Made by a program: the position numbers and the translations under genes
Notes under the pieces: generated by a model
Seen by the model: only the letters and a program-made list of their open reading frames with translations
Databases searched by the model: none
Told to the model about the DNA's origin: nothing
Assembly: GCA_964610125.1 (NCBI GenBank)
Contig: CAZSUV010000001.1
Span: forward strand, 253,240-317,239
Reading direction: 5' to 3'
Length of the DNA stretch: 64,000 bases
Source of the DNA: an uncultured Candidatus Saccharibacteria bacterium
GTDB lineage: Bacteria; Patescibacteriota; Dojkabacteria; SC72
Shown here: positions 9,390 through 58,629 of the stretch, piece after piece
How positions within the stretch are numbered: position 1 is the stretch's first letter
Layout of the letters: the number at the start of each line of letters is the position of its first letter

Positions 9390-9464
9390 CGGAATGGAAG
9401 GGGCTCGAACCCTCAACCTTCTCAGTGACAGTGAGATGCTCTAACCAGTTGAGCTACCACTCCA
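9390..9464 (-). tRNA. tRNA-Asp (GTC)
   Basis: Cloverleaf folded by hand: acceptor GGAGTGG/CCATTCC, D-arm GCTC/GAGC, anticodon stem TCTCA/TGAGA with loop CTGTCAC, T-arm GAGGG-TTCGAGC-CCCTT, discriminator G. Confidence 0.8.
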
Positions 9465-14908: not shown

Positions 14909-14994
14909 GCCGAGGTGGTGAAATTGGCAGACACGCTACCTTGAGGTGGTAGTGGGAGTAAAATCCCTTGCAGGTTCAACTCCTGTCCCCGGCA
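14909..14994 (+). tRNA. tRNA-Leu (GAG), long variable arm
   Basis: Acceptor GCCGAGG/CCCCGGC (one A.C mismatch); anticodon stem CTACC/GGTAG with loop TTGAGGT; ~15-nt variable arm; T-arm GCAGG-TTCAACT-CCTGT. Confidence 0.75.
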
Positions 14995-15003
14995 TATTGT
15001 TAT

Positions 15004-15077
15004 GGACGACTAGCTCAGCTGGTTAGAGCATCTCGTTTACACCGAGAAGGTCATAGGTTCGATCCCTATGTCGTCTA
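15004..15077 (+). tRNA. tRNA-Val (TAC)
   Basis: Acceptor GGACGAC/GTCGTCT; anticodon stem TCTCG/CGAGA with loop TTTACAC; T-arm ATAGG-TTCGATC-CCTAT. Confidence 0.85.
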
Positions 15078-15114
15078 TTTTCTCCTCATTCATATCTCTG
15101 ATATACTGTTAGTT

Positions 15115-15675
15115 ATGACTAACTATTACAATGACCTAACCACAGATCCTAAGGAAGAATTACTATCCCATGTAGATGAAAATGATGTAGAGATGGAGGG
15201 TATTATGAGAGAAGAATGCCATAATGAGAGTATTAAACCATGGCATAGGAATTCTCATGTATATATTATCAATTCAAAAGGAGAGCTATATATTACTCGT
15301 AGATCACATACTAAGGATACTTCTCCTGATCTTTTGACTGTTACTACAGCAGGACATATACGATATCAAGAAGATCCTAAAGAATCAGCTCAAAGAGAGT
15401 TAATGGAAGAACTATGTTTAGAAGCACCTATACACTTTGTAAAGAAGTACAAAGTAGATTATGGTTTTGAAAGAGAATTCATATATGTATATTTTGGTAA
15501 AACAGATAATGTGCCTAAGATAGGGAATGAAGAAGTAGGTGAGATTATACCTATGCCTTTAGATAAGGTTGTCAGTGGTATCAAGGATGGGTCTTTAGTA
15601 CTTGCTCCTGGTGCTCAAGAGGTTATACAGATGCTAATACAAGAGAATCTATTAAGGTTGGAAATGTTTAACTAA
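15115..15675 (+). CDS. Nudix hydrolase of the isopentenyl-diphosphate isomerase (IDI type 1)-like family
   Basis: Track ORF 14968..15675 begins inside tRNA-Leu/Val; the first plausible ATG is 15115 (MTNYYND...). IDI-1-like DENDxxxxGxxxxEECH...HRxxS...N-KGELxxxRR...GH, plus Nudix box GHIRYQEDPKESAQRELMEELCL. Confidence 0.6.
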   Translation: MTNYYNDLTTDPKEELLSHVDENDVEMEGIMREECHNESIKPWHRNSHVYIINSKGELYITRRSHTKDTSPDLLTVTTAGHIRYQEDPKESAQRELMEELCLEAPIHFVKKYKVDYGFEREFIYVYFGKTDNVPKIGNEEVGEIIPMPLDKVVSGIKDGSLVLAPGAQEVIQMLIQENLLRLEMFN

Positions 15676-15710
15676 TATTTCTTAAGTGGTATATTTTATT
15701 ATATATAACT

Positions 15711-15938
15711 TTGGTATATATGATTATGAAATTTGAAACTGTAGCTATAGTTGTAATTGGTAGTATCTTAGTAGGAATACTAGGTGGTTTTGCTGCTAGA
15801 AGTATATGGATTGGTATTGGTTTACCTGTTGTTTTAATTGTTCTTGGTCTTATGTGGTTAGCTGTTAGACCTTCTGCTCCTGAAGTACCAAAGGAAGAAG
15901 AAAAGAAGGATGATACTACGCAAGTAAAGCAGGAATAG
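15711..15938 (+). CDS. Small membrane protein (75 aa), hypothetical
   Basis: Two TM helices then a charged tail PKEEEKKDD. The antisense ORF 15668..15952 is judged less likely. Confidence 0.3.
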   Translation: MVYMIMKFETVAIVVIGSILVGILGGFAARSIWIGIGLPVVLIVLGLMWLAVRPSAPEVPKEEEKKDDTTQVKQE

Positions 15939-15960
15939 GGTATAATTCTCAATGTTTAAT

Positions 15961-16033
15961 GGACGATTAGCTCAGCTGGTTAGAGCATCGCATTCACATT
16001 GCGAAGGTCATTGGTTCGATCCCAATATCGTCT
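15961..16033 (+). tRNA. tRNA-Val (CAC)
   Basis: Acceptor GGACGAT/ATCGTCT; anticodon stem TCGCA/TGCGA with loop TTCACAT; T-arm CATTGG-TTCGATC-CCAAT. Confidence 0.85.
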
Positions 16034-16036
16034 ATA

Positions 16037-51202: not shown

Positions 51203-52270
51203 ATGGTCAAAAACTTAGAGGTTATAAAATTCATTGATCTTTTTGCAGGGATTGGGGGGATTAGAATCGCTTTTGAAAATGTTGGAGCCAAATGTATTTA
51301 TTCTTCCGAGATAGAACCTAATTGTCGTCAAACATACTTTGAGAATTTTGGAGAAGAACCGCATGGTGACATTACGCAAATAGATCCAAAGAATATTCCA
51401 GATCATAACATTCTTTGTGGGGGATTTCCCTGTCAGCCTTTCTCTATTAGCGGAAAACAAAAAGGTTTCCTTGATACTAGGGGGACTTTGTTTTTTAATA
51501 TTATGGAAATAGTAAAAGCTAAAAAGCCAGAGATTGTATTTTTAGAAAATGTTAAGAACTTATCTAAACACGATAGTGGAAATACTTTGAAAGTTATAAT
51601 AAAAGCCCTTGATGATGAAGGATATTCTGTAAAGGTTAAGGTTTTAAACGCAAAAGATTATGGAGTTCCTCAAAATCGTGAAAGAACAATAATAGTAGCC
51701 TCCAGAATTGGAGAATTTGATTTCTCAAAAGTGGAACTAGCCCCAAGGAAACCTGTTATAAAAGATATACTTAGCCAAAGTGAGAAATTTGAATATCTTA
51801 AACCCGAAGAGTATACAATTCTGGATAAAAAATATTGGAAAACACAAATAAGTGGGCTGATTTTCTGTGGATATAGAAATAAAAAAATTAGAACAAATGG
51901 TGTTCGTCCAAATACCGAACATTTATCTAGAGTTCATAAACAACCTAATAGAATATACTATTATGAAGGTACGCACCCAACAATTCCATCACAAGAATTA
52001 TCAGGAAGGTTTTGGATCTATGATGGAAAGAGAGTAAGAAAACTCACTATCAATGAATGCTTCAGATTGATGGGATTCCCTGAAGAATTTAAGAAAATAA
52101 GCTCTACACCTCATTTATATAAACAAATTGGTAATTCTGTTGCGATACCAATGATACAAGCGGTATCATCACAAATAATGTTACAATACTTCCCATATTT
52201 ATATGAGAAAGAAAAAATAAATCTATTTAAAAATCCACAACTATGTATGATGAATATGCTAGAGAATTAG
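51203..52270 (+). CDS. DNA (cytosine-5)-methyltransferase
   Basis: 355 aa; motif I DLFAGIGG; motif IV GGFPCQPFS; motif VI ENVKNL. Confidence 0.92.
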   Translation: MVKNLEVIKFIDLFAGIGGIRIAFENVGAKCIYSSEIEPNCRQTYFENFGEEPHGDITQIDPKNIPDHNILCGGFPCQPFSISGKQKGFLDTRGTLFFNIMEIVKAKKPEIVFLENVKNLSKHDSGNTLKVIIKALDDEGYSVKVKVLNAKDYGVPQNRERTIIVASRIGEFDFSKVELAPRKPVIKDILSQSEKFEYLKPEEYTILDKKYWKTQISGLIFCGYRNKKIRTNGVRPNTEHLSRVHKQPNRIYYYEGTHPTIPSQELSGRFWIYDGKRVRKLTINECFRLMGFPEEFKKISSTPHLYKQIGNSVAIPMIQAVSSQIMLQYFPYLYEKEKINLFKNPQLCMMNMLEN

Positions 52271-53364
52271 GAAGAATTTATGAACAATCATTAAAGAAAG
52301 TAAAAGAAAATGGTTTTTCAGCGATTCCAAACGGAATCTTAGAGCCAACTATGAAAGGGAATATAGAAAAGCTAATAGATAGGGTTGATAATTTTAAAGC
52401 AGTTACAAGTGTTACTATAACAAGTACTCTTAAGAAAATTATTACTCCTGATCAAGATATAAGATTGCATAAAGTAGAATTTGAGAATGGTTATTCAGGG
52501 AGATCATTAGATACGGCTGTGGTTACACCATTTTTGAAGGATAATAATTTGAAATGTATGGCTGAAAGTGGTTGGTTGACTCGTTCATTGGAACAGACCC
52601 ATCCTTTTAGTTTAGATTTCCCTGGTGCTATAAGAGATCAAGAGATCAAGGATGCTTTTCTACAGATTATCAATGATATAGAAACAAAGGGAGCAAATGC
52701 TGAAGCTATTTTGGACTATCTATTGCAGCTTTTAATAATTAAAAGAGAATCGGAAAAAATTGAAATTAGAAAGATTGAAAATGCAGATATATACATATCT
52801 GAAATTATTGAAAAATTAACTAAACATTTCAAAGAAAGCAATTCTTCTGGGACAGCTAGATTGCCGGTATTGGCTGTTTATTCAATTTATGAATGCTTAA
52901 TGAATCAAATAGCTAGATTTCAAGGGAAGGTTCTTAAACCCTTGGAAAGTCATACCTCTGCCGACCTTCGTTCAAACAGTATTGGGGATATTCAGGTTGA
53001 CAATGGAGAGGGAACTCCATTTGAAGGAGTTGAGGTTAAGTATGGGAAGCCAATTACACACTCTATGTTGGAAGATGCATATGGCAAATTTGGATCCCTT
53101 CCTGTAAAAAGATATTACTTGCTGAGTACGGCAGAACCAGAAGAAGATGAGAAAAAACTTATAGAGGATATGATAAGGAAAATAAAGGAAGAACATGGTT
53201 GCCAGGTTATTGTTAATGGTTTACTGCCAACTATTAAGTATTATCTAAGACTTTTGGAGGAACCAACACCATTTTTAAATAAATATACTGAGAATGTACT
53301 AAATGATGAAGTGGTAAAGTTGGAACATAAGCAATTGTGGAAAACAATATTAGAGAACTCTTAA
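52243..53364 (+). CDS. Putative Type II restriction endonuclease (partner of the C5-methyltransferase)
   Basis: 373 aa; overlaps the methyltransferase stop by 28 nt; PD-(D/E)xK-like arrangement D..(11)..EGVEVK. Confidence 0.45.
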   Translation: MYDEYARELGRIYEQSLKKVKENGFSAIPNGILEPTMKGNIEKLIDRVDNFKAVTSVTITSTLKKIITPDQDIRLHKVEFENGYSGRSLDTAVVTPFLKDNNLKCMAESGWLTRSLEQTHPFSLDFPGAIRDQEIKDAFLQIINDIETKGANAEAILDYLLQLLIIKRESEKIEIRKIENADIYISEIIEKLTKHFKESNSSGTARLPVLAVYSIYECLMNQIARFQGKVLKPLESHTSADLRSNSIGDIQVDNGEGTPFEGVEVKYGKPITHSMLEDAYGKFGSLPVKRYYLLSTAEPEEDEKKLIEDMIRKIKEEHGCQVIVNGLLPTIKYYLRLLEEPTPFLNKYTENVLNDEVVKLEHKQLWKTILENS

Positions 53365-53427
53365 AGTATTTAAGAAATGTCGTCTTGACGCAAAAAAATG
53401 GGATATATTATTTAAAAATATAGATTC

Positions 53428-55272
53428 TTAATCGCAGGATATTTTTGTCCATGAAGTATTTAATGTGAATGAAATCAAATCCTTAATATTCTTTTTTGTT
53501 TCAGCTTCAAGATTATTAAAACTTAGTTTGGATGTTAAACATAAAAACTTGTAAGCCAATGCTTTTTTGTTATATTTTTTTAATATCACAAAAGAGGAGT
53601 TTGACATTTTGTTGTATTTAATAGAATCATCATCCTTCAAATCCTCACCCAGTACATATTTCTGAAAATCTTCTTTTGAAAAGATGTCCTCTATCCCAGA
53701 ATCAGAATTCTTTTTATAAGGAGGAATCGTATACATTGTCTTTGATTCTATTCCATAATCCTCTTCTAGTAATTTACGATAGTTAGTCTTTGAATTTGTA
53801 TCTAAAATAACTTTGAAATTAAGACCTTGAGAAATAACAAAAGGAACAATAGTTAACATTGAGCTATCACCCCGAGCAGGAAGAATATTTGTTATGTTAG
53901 TATTTTTTGTTAGTTTTGCCATCGCTCTAATGTAATATAAATCAGAAAGGCCTTCAGTAATAACGACCTTATCATTGATTTTAAGCTGATTTATATACTT
54001 TAAGCCTATCGCTTCCGCAAGTGGTTGTAGTGAGAGATATTCGCCTTTTTTCGTGATTTCGTTTCTAAAATCGTTATAAACAAGTAATTCGTTGTTGTGA
54101 TCTTTCGTCATTCTTCTAATATTTTCTAAAAGATCATAATCAATCATATATTCTGAATGAGTTGACATAATTACAGTGTTCTTGAGAGATAATTTCTTGA
54201 GATAGTTTAATAAATCAAATTGTGCTGTAGCGTGAAAGCCATTATTCGGTTCGTCAAAAAGTAATATTCCATTATTTATTTCATTCACCTTGGCATAAAG
54301 ATAATAGTGGAATAGAAACTTTGTGTTATCAGATAAATGAAAGAAAAAGGAAGACTTGTTTTGTGTTCTTGTTGTGATTTGCAACCCTTGGTTTCGTCTA
54401 ACGGTAATTTCTAAAAATTTAAACTCAGACTCATTTAGTAATTTCTTTAGTTTATCGTTAAATTCGTTTTCCAAAGTCTCATGTAGATCTTGGTCTGAAC
54501 TTCCTAAATATTTTTTAAGATTTTCAATGCCAAGAAATTCTATGAATGTTCTTATGAGTTCTGGTTGATTATCAAAATCATTGATATTCTCTAGGATAAT
54601 TTGGTTTGGTAAAGAGGCGGTGAAATCAAATTCCTTATCAAAAAAATCTATTTGAGGAAATTGCCTAAATAACAAATTCTCAATTGTCAACGCCGAAAAA
54701 TTTAAAGGGAATGTTCTATTTTCAATTCTAATGAACCTCTTGTCTTGTTGTATATAATTAAACAAATGGTTAATTATCTCAGTTAATGAACTTATTCTCT
54801 CTAAGTATTTGTCATTATTTCCAAATATGTAATCACCATTTTTCAGTTTGATAACAGGAATCTCTTGTCCAAAACCTTTAATAAATTCTTTATATATTGA
54901 CTCTAAAGATAAGAAAAATTCTTGTAAATTAGGATTAGAGTCTATAATGGCTTGGTCAATCCCTATGGGTAAAAATAATTCTTCTTTAATAAATCTTATC
55001 TGTGTTTTTACATCAATATCATTCTTTTTAATCTGGAATACTGCTTCTAATCTTGAATCTTCGCCAGTATCTTTGTAATTTTGAAATGATGGATTGTTCT
55101 CAGGGATTAAATCATATTCAAAATTGCGGATTGCCTTTAATAGGGAGGATTTTCCAGAACTATTTCTTCCAATTATATAATATAATTCTTCCTTATTTTT
55201 TGTTTCAAACTTAATTCCCCCAGAGTCTTTGAAACCAAAACAGTTGTAGATTCGGAATGACTTTAATCTCAT
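53428..55272 (-). CDS. OLD-family ATP-dependent endonuclease (ABC-type ATPase + C-terminal TOPRIM)
   Basis: 614 aa; Walker A GRNSSGKSS; Walker B/D-loop ILLFDEPNNGFHATAQ; TOPRIM VVITEGLSD. Confidence 0.75.
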   Translation of the reverse strand: MRLKSFRIYNCFGFKDSGGIKFETKNKEELYYIIGRNSSGKSSLLKAIRNFEYDLIPENNPSFQNYKDTGEDSRLEAVFQIKKNDIDVKTQIRFIKEELFLPIGIDQAIIDSNPNLQEFFLSLESIYKEFIKGFGQEIPVIKLKNGDYIFGNNDKYLERISSLTEIINHLFNYIQQDKRFIRIENRTFPLNFSALTIENLLFRQFPQIDFFDKEFDFTASLPNQIILENINDFDNQPELIRTFIEFLGIENLKKYLGSSDQDLHETLENEFNDKLKKLLNESEFKFLEITVRRNQGLQITTRTQNKSSFFFHLSDNTKFLFHYYLYAKVNEINNGILLFDEPNNGFHATAQFDLLNYLKKLSLKNTVIMSTHSEYMIDYDLLENIRRMTKDHNNELLVYNDFRNEITKKGEYLSLQPLAEAIGLKYINQLKINDKVVITEGLSDLYYIRAMAKLTKNTNITNILPARGDSSMLTIVPFVISQGLNFKVILDTNSKTNYRKLLEEDYGIESKTMYTIPPYKKNSDSGIEDIFSKEDFQKYVLGEDLKDDDSIKYNKMSNSSFVILKKYNKKALAYKFLCLTSKLSFNNLEAETKKNIKDLISFTLNTSWTKISCD

Positions 55273-55374
55273 ATTGTTGAATTGGAAATAATATATTATT
55301 TACCTTCCTATAGCATGATTATATCACTTGAACCTTTGCTTTATATACATTTGATTATATAATGCAATATGTTA

Positions 55375-55538
55375 CCTAAACCTATTTATTTAGGCATGGT
55401 GATGAAAATCAAATCCAGGTCAGTGCGTTAGGCGGTCTTCCGTCTTGCAATCACTGACCTGGTTACTAGGGGAAACTCTAGTAGGTGAAGTAGCAATACT
55501 CACCTGTGAGCGGGAGACCACTTGTCTCAAAGCTCACA
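55375..55538. other. Highly structured ~165-nt element: five consecutive hairpins (candidate ncRNA or 5'-UTR element)
   Basis: Hairpins: CCTAAA/TTTAGG; CCAGGTCAGTG...CACTGACCTGG (11 bp, inner GGCGG-tctt-CCGTC); TACTAG/CTAGTA; GGTGA/TCACC; TGTGAGC...GCTCACA (inner GAGAC/GTCTC). Confidence 0.3.
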
Positions 55539-55573
55539 AACAATTAAATATATAACTTGGTCAGAGGATATAT

Positions 55574-56617
55574 ATGAAAAAGAAAACGAGTGTGAAGAAA
55601 AGTCGCCTATTTCTAAGATATTTAGCTTCTCCGCTTTATTTAATGATCCCTTCTACCATAAGGATCATCATCCTCTTTCTAGGAATAGAAGCCTACGATC
55701 TAATCGCAAGAATAGATTTCAAGGTTATTGTAATCCTGATATTGCTTGGTGTTGTTTCAATTCCATTAACATTTTACATACTGTACGGAATTGGTGCGGG
55801 GTTATTTTATTTAGGGAAAAAGATAATGCAGTTTTCTCCAAATAAGATAGTATTTTGGATTGTATTTTCTCTTTGTGGAATTAGCTTCTTAGATATGTTT
55901 ATTAAAACTAATGCTAATTTAGATCCTGAAACTGCTGTAGTTCCACTAGTTGTAGATATAATAGTTACAATTCTAATTATGACTGTATATGGAATAGGTG
56001 GATATGTCCGAAGCAAAGAGGAGGAAGAGATGGCTATGCAAACAGCTTCAAAACTTGCAGATGAATCAGTGGATAGTGGACTTCCAATTGATATGGGACA
56101 AATTGCCATAGGAGAGGACAAGGAGATTCAAGAAACACTTGAAAACATTGAAAGATTAAAGGAAAGTTCACACTATCCTTTTGTACACCATATTCTTAGA
56201 GACTTAGCATTAAAAGACCCAGGTGTTTTTTCTAAAATGGTTGTTGAAGCACATAAATCTTCTAAAGATAATGCATTTATAGAGCTATGGGAAAGGGTAG
56301 GTGGGTCAGCAGATGAATTAGAAAAGGATTCTCTTGTACCAAGATTTTTACAGCTAAGAAATAAAGAAGTGTTGATTGCAATGAAGATGCCCAAAGTAAA
56401 GAATCAAAACGAAGCCTCATTTATAGGTGTGAACTTACAAACCAAAAGAACACTAAGTTTTTATACACTTGAGCTTACAAAGAAAAAGAAATATGCATTA
56501 TGTAAATGGGAATATCCTTCATTGTTTAGTGATGCTGAGCATTCTTATTTGAAAGACGGACTTGAATCAAATTTAGAATCTTTCCATTGGGCTATAGCGG
56601 ATCTAGAGAATAATTAG
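55574..56617 (+). CDS. Membrane protein (4 TM) with ~200-aa cytoplasmic domain, hypothetical
   Basis: 347 aa; ATG at 55574 preferred over the overlapping track ORF 55522. Confidence 0.5.
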   Translation: MKKKTSVKKSRLFLRYLASPLYLMIPSTIRIIILFLGIEAYDLIARIDFKVIVILILLGVVSIPLTFYILYGIGAGLFYLGKKIMQFSPNKIVFWIVFSLCGISFLDMFIKTNANLDPETAVVPLVVDIIVTILIMTVYGIGGYVRSKEEEEMAMQTASKLADESVDSGLPIDMGQIAIGEDKEIQETLENIERLKESSHYPFVHHILRDLALKDPGVFSKMVVEAHKSSKDNAFIELWERVGGSADELEKDSLVPRFLQLRNKEVLIAMKMPKVKNQNEASFIGVNLQTKRTLSFYTLELTKKKKYALCKWEYPSLFSDAEHSYLKDGLESNLESFHWAIADLENN

Positions 56618-56652: not shown

Positions 56653-57342
56653 ATGTTTAAAACAGATAAACTATACTTAAAGAAGAACTGGGACATTCCT
56701 ATTGAATATCACCCCACTAATACCAAAAGAATGATTATTTGCATTCCTGGGGCAGATGGGAGCGTCAGGGGGTATAAGAATAAGTACCTGAACCTAGGCA
56801 ATTATATCCAAGAAAAGAACATAGCCTCTTTCGTTAGAGTTCCAAATGATAGACCTCAAGAATTCATTGATTCTGCTGAACACTTTATTCAATATTGCTT
56901 AGATCATTCTGAAGAAATATGTGGAGAAAAGGTCTGCCCTGAGATATGGTTAATGGGATTCTCTGCGGGTGGGGCATCTATTTTATTAACTGCATGGGAA
57001 TACCCATGGGTAACAAAAATATTAGCAATCAACCCATTCTTAGGAAATGATATATTTAGAGAATTAGAGACATATTTACCCTTGTATATGGGAAAAGTAT
57101 TTGTTGTCATAGGTGAAGACGACAAAATCTGTGATCCCAATTTTACAAAGAAATATATTGAAGATAATGCTATCAAAAAGAAAGAACCTCAGATACATAT
57201 ACTTCCTAATTGTGATCATCAACTAAAAGGGGAAACAAATTCTAGAATATTATCCCAATTACCTGAATATTATTTTCTTGATAAGTATAAAACTGAACCA
57301 TTCCCAGATGGGAACAAAGGTATAAATTTATTGGATTCATAA
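56653..57342 (+). CDS. Alpha/beta-hydrolase fold esterase/lipase-like protein
   Basis: 229 aa; nucleophile elbow GFSAGG; His near the C-terminus (CDHQ). Confidence 0.6.
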   Translation: MFKTDKLYLKKNWDIPIEYHPTNTKRMIICIPGADGSVRGYKNKYLNLGNYIQEKNIASFVRVPNDRPQEFIDSAEHFIQYCLDHSEEICGEKVCPEIWLMGFSAGGASILLTAWEYPWVTKILAINPFLGNDIFRELETYLPLYMGKVFVVIGEDDKICDPNFTKKYIEDNAIKKKEPQIHILPNCDHQLKGETNSRILSQLPEYYFLDKYKTEPFPDGNKGINLLDS

Positions 57343-57343
57343 A

Positions 57344-57742
57344 GTGAAGATCTACTTAGACATTGATGGTGTAATGGTAACTTCTCATCATAAACAAATG
57401 CCATATCTTAAAGAGTTCTTAGACTTGGTATTTACAATATCAAATGGAGAGGTATATTGGTTAACTACTCACTGCCATAATGGAGATAATACAAGAGCTT
57501 TAGACTATCTCCATCTTCAAGTAGACCCAGAGATATATGAAATGTTAAAAAAGCTAAAAGCTACTAAATGGGAAACTCTTAAAACAGAGGGTATTGATTT
57601 GAACGAAGAATTTCTTTGGTTTGATGATAATATATTTGAAGTTGAATACAAAGAATTAGAGAAGGTAGGAAAAGAACATTGTTTGATTAAGGTAAAGGAT
57701 AATTTAGAAGAATTAGTTGAGCTATTAAAGGAGGAAATATGA
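57344..57742 (+). CDS. Mini HAD-superfamily phosphatase (capless, PNKP/NT5C-like)
   Basis: 132 aa with a GTG start; motif I YLDIDGVMV; motif II WLTTH; motif IV WFDDN. Confidence 0.5.
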   Translation: MKIYLDIDGVMVTSHHKQMPYLKEFLDLVFTISNGEVYWLTTHCHNGDNTRALDYLHLQVDPEIYEMLKKLKATKWETLKTEGIDLNEEFLWFDDNIFEVEYKELEKVGKEHCLIKVKDNLEELVELLKEEI

Positions 57743-58269
57743 GAGGTGCAATCATTGGAGATATTGTAGGTTCTACAAGAGAATTTGTTGAAAGAGTAAC
57801 GACAAAGGAATTTGATCTATTTCCCTATGGAAGTACATTCACAGATGATACAGTATTAACAATCTCTGTATATGATGCTTTACATAACCATATCCCATAT
57901 GATGAGGCTTTCATGAAGTGGATAGAGAAGTATCCAAACCGTGGCTACGGAGGTATGTTCTTTCAATGGATTCTTAGTAAAGAAAAGAAGCCATATGGCA
58001 GTAAGGGAAACGGAGCTGCAATGAGGGTATCTGCAGTTGGTTGGCTATTTGATACAGAAAAAGATGTTCTAGATGAAGCTAAGAAATCAGCAGAAATAAC
58101 GCATGATACTGAAGAAGGGATATTCTCAGCTCAGGCAGTAGCTATAGCAATCTATATGGGAAGGAATAAAAGAAGTAAAAAGGAAATAAAGGAATATATA
58201 GAAAAGAATTTCAAATATGATTTAAGTAGGACTATGGATGAAGTAAGGAATGAATATGAGAATTACTAG
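57739..58269 (+). CDS. ADP-ribosylglycohydrolase (ARH/DraG)-family protein, N-terminal half only
   Basis: 176 aa; GAIIGDIVGS, TDDT and GNGAAMR are ARH motifs; the second metal-site half is absent. Confidence 0.5.
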   Translation: MRGAIIGDIVGSTREFVERVTTKEFDLFPYGSTFTDDTVLTISVYDALHNHIPYDEAFMKWIEKYPNRGYGGMFFQWILSKEKKPYGSKGNGAAMRVSAVGWLFDTEKDVLDEAKKSAEITHDTEEGIFSAQAVAIAIYMGRNKRSKKEIKEYIEKNFKYDLSRTMDEVRNEYENY

Positions 58270-58567
58270 GGAACAGTACCAAGAATTATCAGAAAAGTAT
58301 TCTAAAAAACAGAAAGAATTTGAAAGGAAACTGGCAAATCTACTAGATACAAATAAAGACTACTATGACACAGCTTGTGACATATTAGATTTAGCTTCAA
58401 GGGCATATGAACTGTATTTAGGTTCTGAACTTAATGAAAAAAGGGAGATTTTGAATTTACTATTTCAGAACCTGTATTTGAAAGATGAAAAGCTAGTCTA
58501 CAAGCTGAATAAACCGTTTGATAGTATACTCGTCTGCAATGATCGTCTTGAATGGCTCCCCGAGTAG
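58250..58567 (+). CDS. Small helical hypothetical protein
   Basis: 105 aa; overlaps the previous gene by 20 nt; its last 14 nt overlap tRNA-Asn. Confidence 0.35.
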   Translation: MNMRITREQYQELSEKYSKKQKEFERKLANLLDTNKDYYDTACDILDLASRAYELYLGSELNEKREILNLLFQNLYLKDEKLVYKLNKPFDSILVCNDRLEWLPE

Positions 58568-58629
58568 GATTCGAACCTACAACCGAACGGTTAACAGCCG
58601 TTTGCTCTACCATTGAGCTATCGAGGATT
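58554..58629 (-). tRNA. tRNA-Asn (GTT), CCA encoded
   Basis: Acceptor TCCTCGA/TCGGGGA; D-arm GCTC/GAGC; anticodon stem AACGG/CCGTT with loop CTGTTAA; T-arm GTAGG-TTCGAAT-CCTAC; discriminator G followed by CCA. Confidence 0.85.

Follow-up and report, generated by a model that had tools for sequence, protein, structure and literature searches.

The element is a divergent LOOT RNA

A 64,000-nucleotide stretch of DNA from an uncultured Candidatus Saccharibacteria bacterium, hereafter the window, carries a structured RNA element in the 301-bp gap (55273-55573) between the end of a minus-strand gene at 55272 and the ATG of a plus-strand gene at 55574. It adds a divergent member to LOOT, an orphan RNA family that has already been catalogued. 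Positions 55373-55504 (+) matched the Rfam 15 model of LOOT RNA (RF03000) with 59.0 bits against a gathering score of 46.4, and the match spanned model positions 1-121 of 121 (E = 2.7e-10 when searched locally and 1.6e-8 with the whole window as query). We consider, with moderate confidence, that the element is a cis-acting 5′ leader of the 55574 mRNA that would work as a riboswitch-like conformational switch. An earlier note on this DNA had described five hairpins in the gap and proposed an Rfam scan, without being able to name the family. All five stems are present in the gap sequence, and the scan, once run, returned LOOT, of which the first four hairpins are helices P1 to P4.

Besides LOOT, only tRNA families were matched by Rfam in the 64-kb window, and when the element was compared with Rfam at E <= 10, no family other than LOOT appeared, save chance-level hits. 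A blastn search of the element against plasmid and phage collections gave zero matches, and no open reading frame (ORF) of at least 50 aa covers the element in the ORF list of the window. On the plus strand, the region 55365-55575 was predicted to fold to -81.8 kcal/mol, compared with -47.0 ± 4.2 kcal/mol for shuffled sequences (z = -8.3), an energy that was reached by 0 of 200 dinucleotide shuffles; the impression that structure in the gap lies far above the background was therefore correct. The minus strand folded to -66.3 kcal/mol (z = -5.6, dinucleotide shuffles). The earlier note had regarded the strand as ambiguous and had listed a minus-strand non-coding RNA among its options. We assigned the plus strand because the Rfam match lies on it and because the helices contain many G-U pairs, which would become A-C mismatches on the opposite strand, and the minus-strand RNA was rejected on the same grounds.

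LOOT goes back to Weinberg et al. 2017 (PMC5737381). It is termed a 'metagenomic-based RNA' in the Rfam 14 paper (PMC7779021), its family was refined with R-scape in Rfam 15, and the CaCoFold paper presents it as an extreme case of 'cross-covariation'. In the papers that we searched, no function assigned to LOOT was found.

Relatives were found with a pattern built from conserved LOOT positions, and about 190 were collected overall. At least 120 loci came from one-genome-per-species contigs, about 110 of which, among the matches listed, have a perfect or near-perfect P3; a second pattern yielded 77 unique LOOT copies in metagenomes. All of the 16 loci that were re-scanned with Rfam were LOOT (16/16, 56-94 bits). 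The window copy (59 bits) and its close relatives L149 (57.9 bits) and L024 (56.5 bits) had the lowest scores, compared with 70-94 bits for typical members. The nearest relative among the matches listed is L149, from a Saccharibacteria assembly, with 90% identity over 207 nt. Lineage labels of Patescibacteria are attached to 85 of the 120 genome loci among the matches listed, while 13 are labelled only 'bacterium' and 22 carry other labels; the last group includes one complete TM6 genome and some short contigs in metagenome bins. Typical LOOT RNAs were also seen in archaea-, Firmicutes- or Proteobacteria-labelled bins, namely at L052, L064, L068, L116, L144 and several 'Gammaproteobacteria' loci (e.g. 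L158, whose contig also holds a partial 16S rRNA gene and a tRNA array). Because many of these contigs are short, such bins possibly contain mis-binned Patescibacteria DNA. The pattern search further gave seven true LOOT copies (56-94 bits) on IMG/VR contigs, which carry a viral classification in that collection (L003, L009, L010, L018, L024, L048 and L051). The window itself is part of a cellular chromosome, as it carries the genes for IleRS, GluRS and RecJ.

The window copy shares with LOOT the four-hairpin layout, the P1 motif CCUAAAC/GCAUGG, an 8-bp P3 with a GAAA loop and a GNRA-capped P4. Compared with typical LOOT, the window and its close relatives have a longer junction between P1 and P2 (J1/2), an elaborated P4, an unusually strong inner P2 hairpin and an unusually strong fifth hairpin downstream of P4, and they are devoid of the U-rich run.

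Base pairing of helices P1 to P4 is kept in relatives

Conservation of the pairings was tested at two levels. P1, P3 and a pseudoknot between the P2 loop and the 3′ tail of the element were examined on a MAFFT alignment of 48 members that was fitted to no structure, and P4 and hairpin 5 were examined for covariation within a subfamily of 16 members that contains the window copy. The outer stem of P2 was assessed by per-sequence parsing only, because MAFFT misaligned the P2 arms and P4 family-wide; RNAalifold, applied to the family MAFFT alignment with these arms misaligned, recovered neither P2 nor P4. For P1, P3 and the pseudoknot together, 92.5% of the alignment cells were paired, compared with 66% in shuffles and 36-48% in slid controls, and the covariation score in the same test was 0.756 versus 0.259. 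The covariation check in relatives that the earlier note had proposed thus found conserved base pairing, and the feature stands.

P1 (55372-55402, +), as placed by the Rfam alignment, consists of an outer stem (55372-76/55398-402) and an inner stem (55381-84/55391-94) around an internal loop with UAAA (55377-80) opposite CAU (55395-97). The family motif is found as CCTAAAC at 55375-81 and GCATGG at 55394-99. The first hairpin had originally been drawn as the inverted repeat CCTAAA/TTTAGG (55375-94); this repeat does exist in the sequence, but the conserved pairing is that of the LOOT P1 register, as seen in the Rfam alignment and in the covariation. In the 48 relatives, the outer and inner stems were 91-93% paired with compensatory changes. 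P1 is followed by the A-rich junction J1/2, UGAUGAAAAUCAAAU (55403-55414, +), which is an insertion relative to the Rfam model; it is longer than in typical LOOT and is conserved in the subfamily of the window.

P2 (55415-55462, +) has an 11-bp perfect outer stem (55415-25/55452-62), as described in the earlier note, and an apical loop of 26 nt (55426-51) that holds the inner hairpin GGCGG-UCUU-CCGUC (55431-35/55440-44). By per-sequence parsing of 112 relatives, the outer stem has a mean length of 9.5 bp, with arm sequences that are unrelated between members. P3 (55464-55483, +), present in the DNA as the inverted repeat ACTAGGGG-GAAA-CTCTAGT, is an 8-bp stem closed by a GAAA tetraloop (55472-75). 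All eight of its pairs covary (8/8) and 97.9% were paired in the 48-sequence alignment, and the loop was GAAA in 74 of the 77 metagenomic LOOT RNAs, where the search pattern had left the loop free. P4 (55485-55504, +) is formed by the inverted repeat GGTGA...TCACC, that is GGUGA...UCACC in the RNA, with an inner GUA-GCAA-UAC hairpin. Six of its pairs were changed on both sides within the 16-sequence subfamily, and its loop across the family is GCAA (44), GAAA (24), UUCG (12) or GUAA (6). P2, P3 and P4 are joined by linkers of 0-2 nt, as the LOOT layout requires.

The internal loop of P1, which is invariant in the family, resembles a known docking site for GAAA loops. The canonical 11-nt GAAA tetraloop receptor is CCUAAG/UAUGG (10.1101/2024.03.11.584472), and LOOT P1 shares its CC/GG pairs as well as the loop residues UAA and AU, while a GAAA loop is present in another part of the RNA. 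It differs in that the closing G-U is replaced by A-C, one isosteric change, and is then followed by a C-G pair. Judging from these motifs, the GAAA loop of P3 probably docks into the receptor-like loop of P1 and would clamp the fold. We also considered a leader peptide that starts from the conserved AUG of GCAUGG, and this candidate was rejected since the length of the open frame ranges from 2 to more than 99 codons.

A loop-tail pseudoknot and local hairpins compete for the same nucleotides

The Rfam model of LOOT ends at P4 (55504), and the tail, the pseudoknot, hairpin 5 and the P2-arm copy at the start codon all lie outside the modelled structure. The 3′ tail, UGUGAGCGGGAGACC (55505-55519, +), is complementary to GGUCUUCCGUCUUGCA in the P2 apical loop (55434-55449, +), where the 5′ strand of the pseudoknot reads GGUCUUCCGU C UUGCA, and the duplex has a predicted energy of -26.2 kcal/mol. 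To see how far this complementarity is a property of the family, the P2 loop of each of 112 non-redundant members was paired with its own tail and with those of the others. The mean energy was -25.1 kcal/mol with the own tail and -14.0 kcal/mol with the others, and the own tail was better in 112/112 cases. In the 48-sequence alignment, all ten core pairs of the pseudoknot were changed on both sides (10/10) and 91% were paired, while within the subfamily 95.4% were paired and two pairs were changed on both sides. The pseudoknot of the family can be extended to a median of 17 bp (14-19 bp), which uses nearly all of the P2 loop and leaves linkers of 0-3 nt.

The same tail takes part in two structures, as the 3′ strand of the pseudoknot and as the 5′ arm of hairpin 5 (55505-55538, +). 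As the earlier note had stated, the outer stem of this hairpin is the 7-bp TGTGAGC/GCTCACA (55505-11/55532-38), which nests GAGAC/GTCTC (55514-18/55524-28). Hairpin 5 and the inner P2 hairpin therefore reuse the nucleotides of the pseudoknot. Their summed energy in the window is -27.7 kcal/mol, compared with -26.2 kcal/mol for the pseudoknot duplex, whereas in the family the local alternative is weaker (-16.2 versus -25.2 kcal/mol for the pseudoknot).

Within the 16-member subfamily, the outer stem of hairpin 5 was 92.7% paired with two compensatory pairs. The arms of the hairpin are changed in a compensatory manner to CUGCAAGC/GCUUGCAG in L215 and L258, and in L173, L253 and L264 the sequence AUCUCCC replaces GCUCACA and pairs with the tail segment GGGAGA instead. 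One loop position covaries with each of the two bases that it can pair with: in the inner hairpin, a C-G pair is replaced by U-A in two members; the tail base is also changed from C to U in L024 and is unchanged in L225. Across the family, the 5′ half of the tail paired with its own downstream segment at -13.9 kcal/mol compared with -10.9 kcal/mol for the segments of others, and the own segment was better in 85 of 112 members (p = 1e-8). The fraction of tail nucleotides in local pairs was 0.61 versus 0.59 in shuffles and thus showed no excess. Hairpin 5 was also considered as an intrinsic terminator. This candidate was rejected, as the sequence that follows it, AAACAAUUAAAU, has no U-run and no plus-strand terminator was found in 55150-55750.

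An imperfect P2-arm copy overlaps the Shine-Dalgarno region

Downstream of hairpin 5, an imperfect copy of the P2 5′ arm, UAACUUGGUCAG (55553-55564, +), is complementary to the P2 3′ arm and the adjoining junction (55454-65). The copy overlaps the Shine-Dalgarno region, in which AGAGGA (55563-68, +) and the ATG (55574-76, +) were read from the sequence. Its complementarity is 83%, it is nearly invariant in the subfamily, and its duplex has -12.1 kcal/mol compared with -6.7 kcal/mol for the sequences of other members.

Exact copies of the P2 5′ arm of at least 9 nt were found downstream in 15 of 106 genome LOOT RNAs among the matches listed, where 0.9% would be expected by chance, and in 15% of the metagenome set, where chance gives 0.4%. 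They mostly end 1-5 nt before the ATG, include the ATG in one lineage and often include the preceding AAAAC. In members with an exact copy, the fold that pairs the P2 3′ arm with the copy is either the predicted minimum or within 0.9-5.2 kcal/mol of it; P3, P4 and hairpin 5 then lie inside the new helix, and the start region is sequestered. As a separate matter, the U-rich run at the 3′ end of the pseudoknot and the P2-arm copy were considered as alternative platforms, and this idea was dropped since both were found together in L174, L180 and L214 by sequence inspection.

LOOT RNAs mostly lie between a putative promoter and a same-strand gene

A -10 hexamer, TATAAT (55358-55363, +), was read from the sequence upstream of P1. 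It ends 11 nt before CCUAAAC, which would place the transcription start about 2-4 nt before P1. We counted -10-like hexamers (TANAAT/NACAAT, typically TACAAT) 4-16 nt upstream of CCUAAAC over 111 loci among the matches listed, and 59 were found compared with 5 at control offsets, so that the conserved upstream hexamer fits a dedicated LOOT promoter. The consensus promoter scan did not list the window promoter because its -35 element, TTGCTT (55336-41), matches only 3 of 6 positions. A scan of 55150-55750 gave no plus-strand terminator between the RNA and the ATG.

Taken as the longest open frame just downstream, the gene that follows LOOT shares its strand in 96 of the 103 loci among the matches listed (p = 4e-21), and the upstream gene is divergent in 66 of 105 loci among these matches. 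In the genome loci among the matches listed, the start codon follows P4 at a median distance of 58 nt (interquartile range, 48-69 nt). The upstream -10 box, the lack of a terminator before the ATG in the scanned region and the family-wide placement before same-strand genes make the 5′ untranslated region of the 55574 gene, one of the readings offered by the earlier note, the favoured one.

An N-terminal membrane-like segment is found in 61% of the downstream products compared with 21% of control ORFs, about a three-fold enrichment. Their Pfam hits are scattered over DUF4352, Trypsin_2, S8/S26 peptidases, zinc-ribbon membrane proteins, PG_binding and a few methylases. Leaders that are 84-96% identical to that of the window precede at least six unrelated first genes, and the similarity ends at the start codon. 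The subfamily of leaders comprises 55371-55576 of the window and those of L149, L024, L173, L197, L215, L219, L225, L231, L236, L239, L244, L253, L258, L264 and L279. Such near-identical leaders could reflect a regulon of recently copied leaders or gene turnover behind a fixed leader.

The leader may act as a riboswitch-like switch

On these grounds, the mechanism that we favour may be described as follows. The leader would be transcribed from its own promoter, with the -10 box just upstream of P1, and would fold into P1-P4, with the GAAA loop of P3 clamped in the receptor-like loop CCUAAAC/GCAUGG of P1. The tail (55505-19) would then have two options: it may pair with the whole P2 apical loop in a pseudoknot of 15-19 bp, or it may form hairpin 5 locally while the P2 loop closes as the GGCGG/CCGUC hairpin. 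The P2 3′ arm may likewise have a second partner in the P2 5′-arm copy at 55553-64, which coincides with the ribosome-binding region. One fold would leave the ribosome-binding site open and the other would bury it; for many relatives, the effect of this other fold may rather be to halt transcription where the pseudoknot ends in U-rich sequence. A signal would set the balance between the LOOT fold and the local or downstream pairings. More tentatively, as an idea that we hold to be possible rather than probable, LOOT could be a riboswitch-like sensor, specific to Patescibacteria (the Candidate Phyla Radiation) and a few neighbouring lineages, of a global signal, for example an ion, a protein or a second messenger, that turns a large, fast-changing set of envelope and secreted proteins on or off, with the pseudoknot, hairpin 5 and the arm copy as the expression platform.

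Two riboswitch classes offer points of comparison, and no Rfam riboswitch family matches the element. The ZTP riboswitch (pfl motif) is pseudoknotted and the 3′ strand of its pseudoknot, of about 5-7 bp, is shared with the expression platform. LOOT is similar in that one strand of its long-range helix, the 3′ one, can join either the sensor fold or a downstream hairpin but not both at once, and in that a conserved core with a variable downstream part is located in 5′ leaders. It differs in its much longer pseudoknot of 14-19 bp, in the absence of a U-run after hairpin 5 of the window and in downstream genes that indicate no metabolite. In the c-di-GMP-I riboswitch (GEMM), a GNRA tetraloop and its receptor clamp two helices side by side, and the riboswitch lies upstream of very diverse genes, many for envelope or secreted proteins, as suits a global signal. 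The likeness to LOOT in the clamp and the diverse gene set is an analogy only, since neither the sequence nor the model matches and the helices are arranged differently.

Several results weigh against a switch that acts in cis. The 106 downstream proteins fall into 89 BLAST clusters and share no pathway. Only about 15% of the members have a clear P2-arm copy, and the window has an imperfect one, with which a fold that hides the ribosome-binding site is less stable than P2 by 13.8 kcal/mol. Across the family, the accessibility of the ribosome-binding site did not depend on the state of the pseudoknot (0.506 versus 0.488, p = 0.57), as calculated from partition-function unpaired probabilities with the pseudoknot nucleotides blocked or free. 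Moreover, a closed P2 and the full pseudoknot appear sterically strained in one molecule and may not coexist, because the P2 loop is almost wholly used and the linkers are 0-3 nt, judging from what is known of H-type pseudoknot geometry. The loop-tail helix may therefore represent alternative states, a partial pseudoknot or intermolecular pairing, and covariation cannot separate alternative folds from dimers. We considered pairing between molecules because the pseudoknot looks incompatible with a closed P2, and LOOT might accordingly be a dimer or multimer. Finally, the Rfam type label of LOOT is 'Gene; sRNA'.

The label leads to the first of four other explanations, a free-standing small RNA (sRNA) that acts in trans, with its placement before genes being incidental or due to read-through. 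Its own promoter and the mutually unrelated downstream genes are in agreement with such an RNA, as is the 3′ strand of the pseudoknot, whose end is U-rich in 51 of 112 members (5 or more U in 9 nt) and, together with the GC-rich helix, is terminator-like. However, the U-rich run is largely paired itself with the A-rich 5′ part of the P2 loop, and the window has neither a U-run nor a terminator before the ATG. The same-strand bias among the matches listed and the narrow distance to the start codon are also at odds with an incidental position, the spacer of about 35-40 nt after the pseudoknot is too short for a separate promoter plus leader, and conservation in the subfamily reaches the start codon with the P2-arm copy included. 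We therefore regard a trans-acting sRNA as unlikely.

Alternatively, the RNA could be a constitutive structural 5′ element that protects against nucleases or fixes translation efficiency, with no switching and no sensed signal. P1 starting within a few nucleotides of the inferred transcription start would suit such an element, the near-identical leaders before at least six unrelated genes look like a portable expression module, and the modelled accessibility of the ribosome-binding site is independent of the pseudoknot state. On the other hand, four helices, a covarying 14-19 bp pseudoknot and a GAAA loop with a receptor-like loop exceed what is known of 5′ stabilisers, and a static element does not explain the conserved mutually exclusive pairings, namely the hairpin 5 variants and the P2-arm copies at start codons. 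We consider this explanation quite unlikely.

That the leader contains a ribozyme, self-cleaving or of another kind, appears very improbable. The compact fold, the pseudoknot, the tetraloop-receptor-like contact and the few invariant unpaired nucleotides are reminiscent of ribozymes, and small ribozymes also adjoin varied genes, but no Rfam ribozyme family was matched even at E <= 10, the invariant nucleotides are mostly explained by the receptor-like loop and the GAAA loop, and no candidate cleavage site is apparent. The recombination or att-like site suggested in the earlier note, or a repeat element at the edge of a defence island, was rejected: the neighbours of the element include a restriction-modification pair and the gene of an OLD-family ATPase, there is a tRNA gene 3 kb downstream and near-identical copies precede different genes, but the stem sequences differ completely among members and yet pair, including through G-U pairs that exist on one strand only, the changes are compensatory as in RNA with the pseudoknot covarying as well, the orientation to the downstream gene is fixed and plasmid and phage collections gave no blastn match.

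Genes around the LOOT leader in the window

The leader is followed on the plus strand by a putative operon whose first gene (55574-56617) encodes a protein of 347 aa with about five membrane segments within its first 134 residues and no family match. The next genes are located at 56653-57342, 57344-57742, 57739-58269 and 58250-58567 (+), and their products are devoid of membrane segments. The second and third genes recur at the LOOT loci L024 and L149, where the first gene does not. The ORF at 57739-58269 (176 aa) matches ADP-ribosylglycohydrolase over profile positions 4-209 of 287 and, because this coverage is partial, it may be truncated or split. No family was matched by the ORF at 58250-58567, which overlaps the preceding one and extends into a minus-strand tRNA gene (58556-58627).

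A defence-type cluster (51203-55272) lies directly upstream of the RNA. It consists of a C5 cytosine methylase gene (51203-52270), a gene for a SacI-like restriction enzyme (52243-53364) and a divergently transcribed gene for an OLD/AbiL/GajA-like AAA_15/AAA_21 ATPase of 614 aa (53428-55272). Elsewhere in the window, three tRNA genes are clustered at 14909-16034 and others were found at 9390, 31653 and 58556, and positions 14954-15075 are 89% identical to the start of contig L052.

Meaning for the LOOT family and for Patescibacteria

For the window alone, the result is modest: the hairpins are a real feature and represent a divergent copy of LOOT. The family belongs to the orphan structured RNAs that comparative genomics brought to light in 2017, and four points at the level of the family are added here to what the papers that we searched say of it, namely its bias towards Patescibacteria, its position as a leader, an unmodelled pseudoknot with competing hairpins and the start-codon copy of the P2 arm. 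The known structure is thereby extended by a strongly covarying pseudoknot and by local hairpins that compete with it. Taken together, LOOT is now placed mainly in Patescibacteria, a huge, uncultivated and host-dependent group whose gene regulation is almost unknown, and is now seen there as a leader of genes that are enriched in membrane and secreted proteins.

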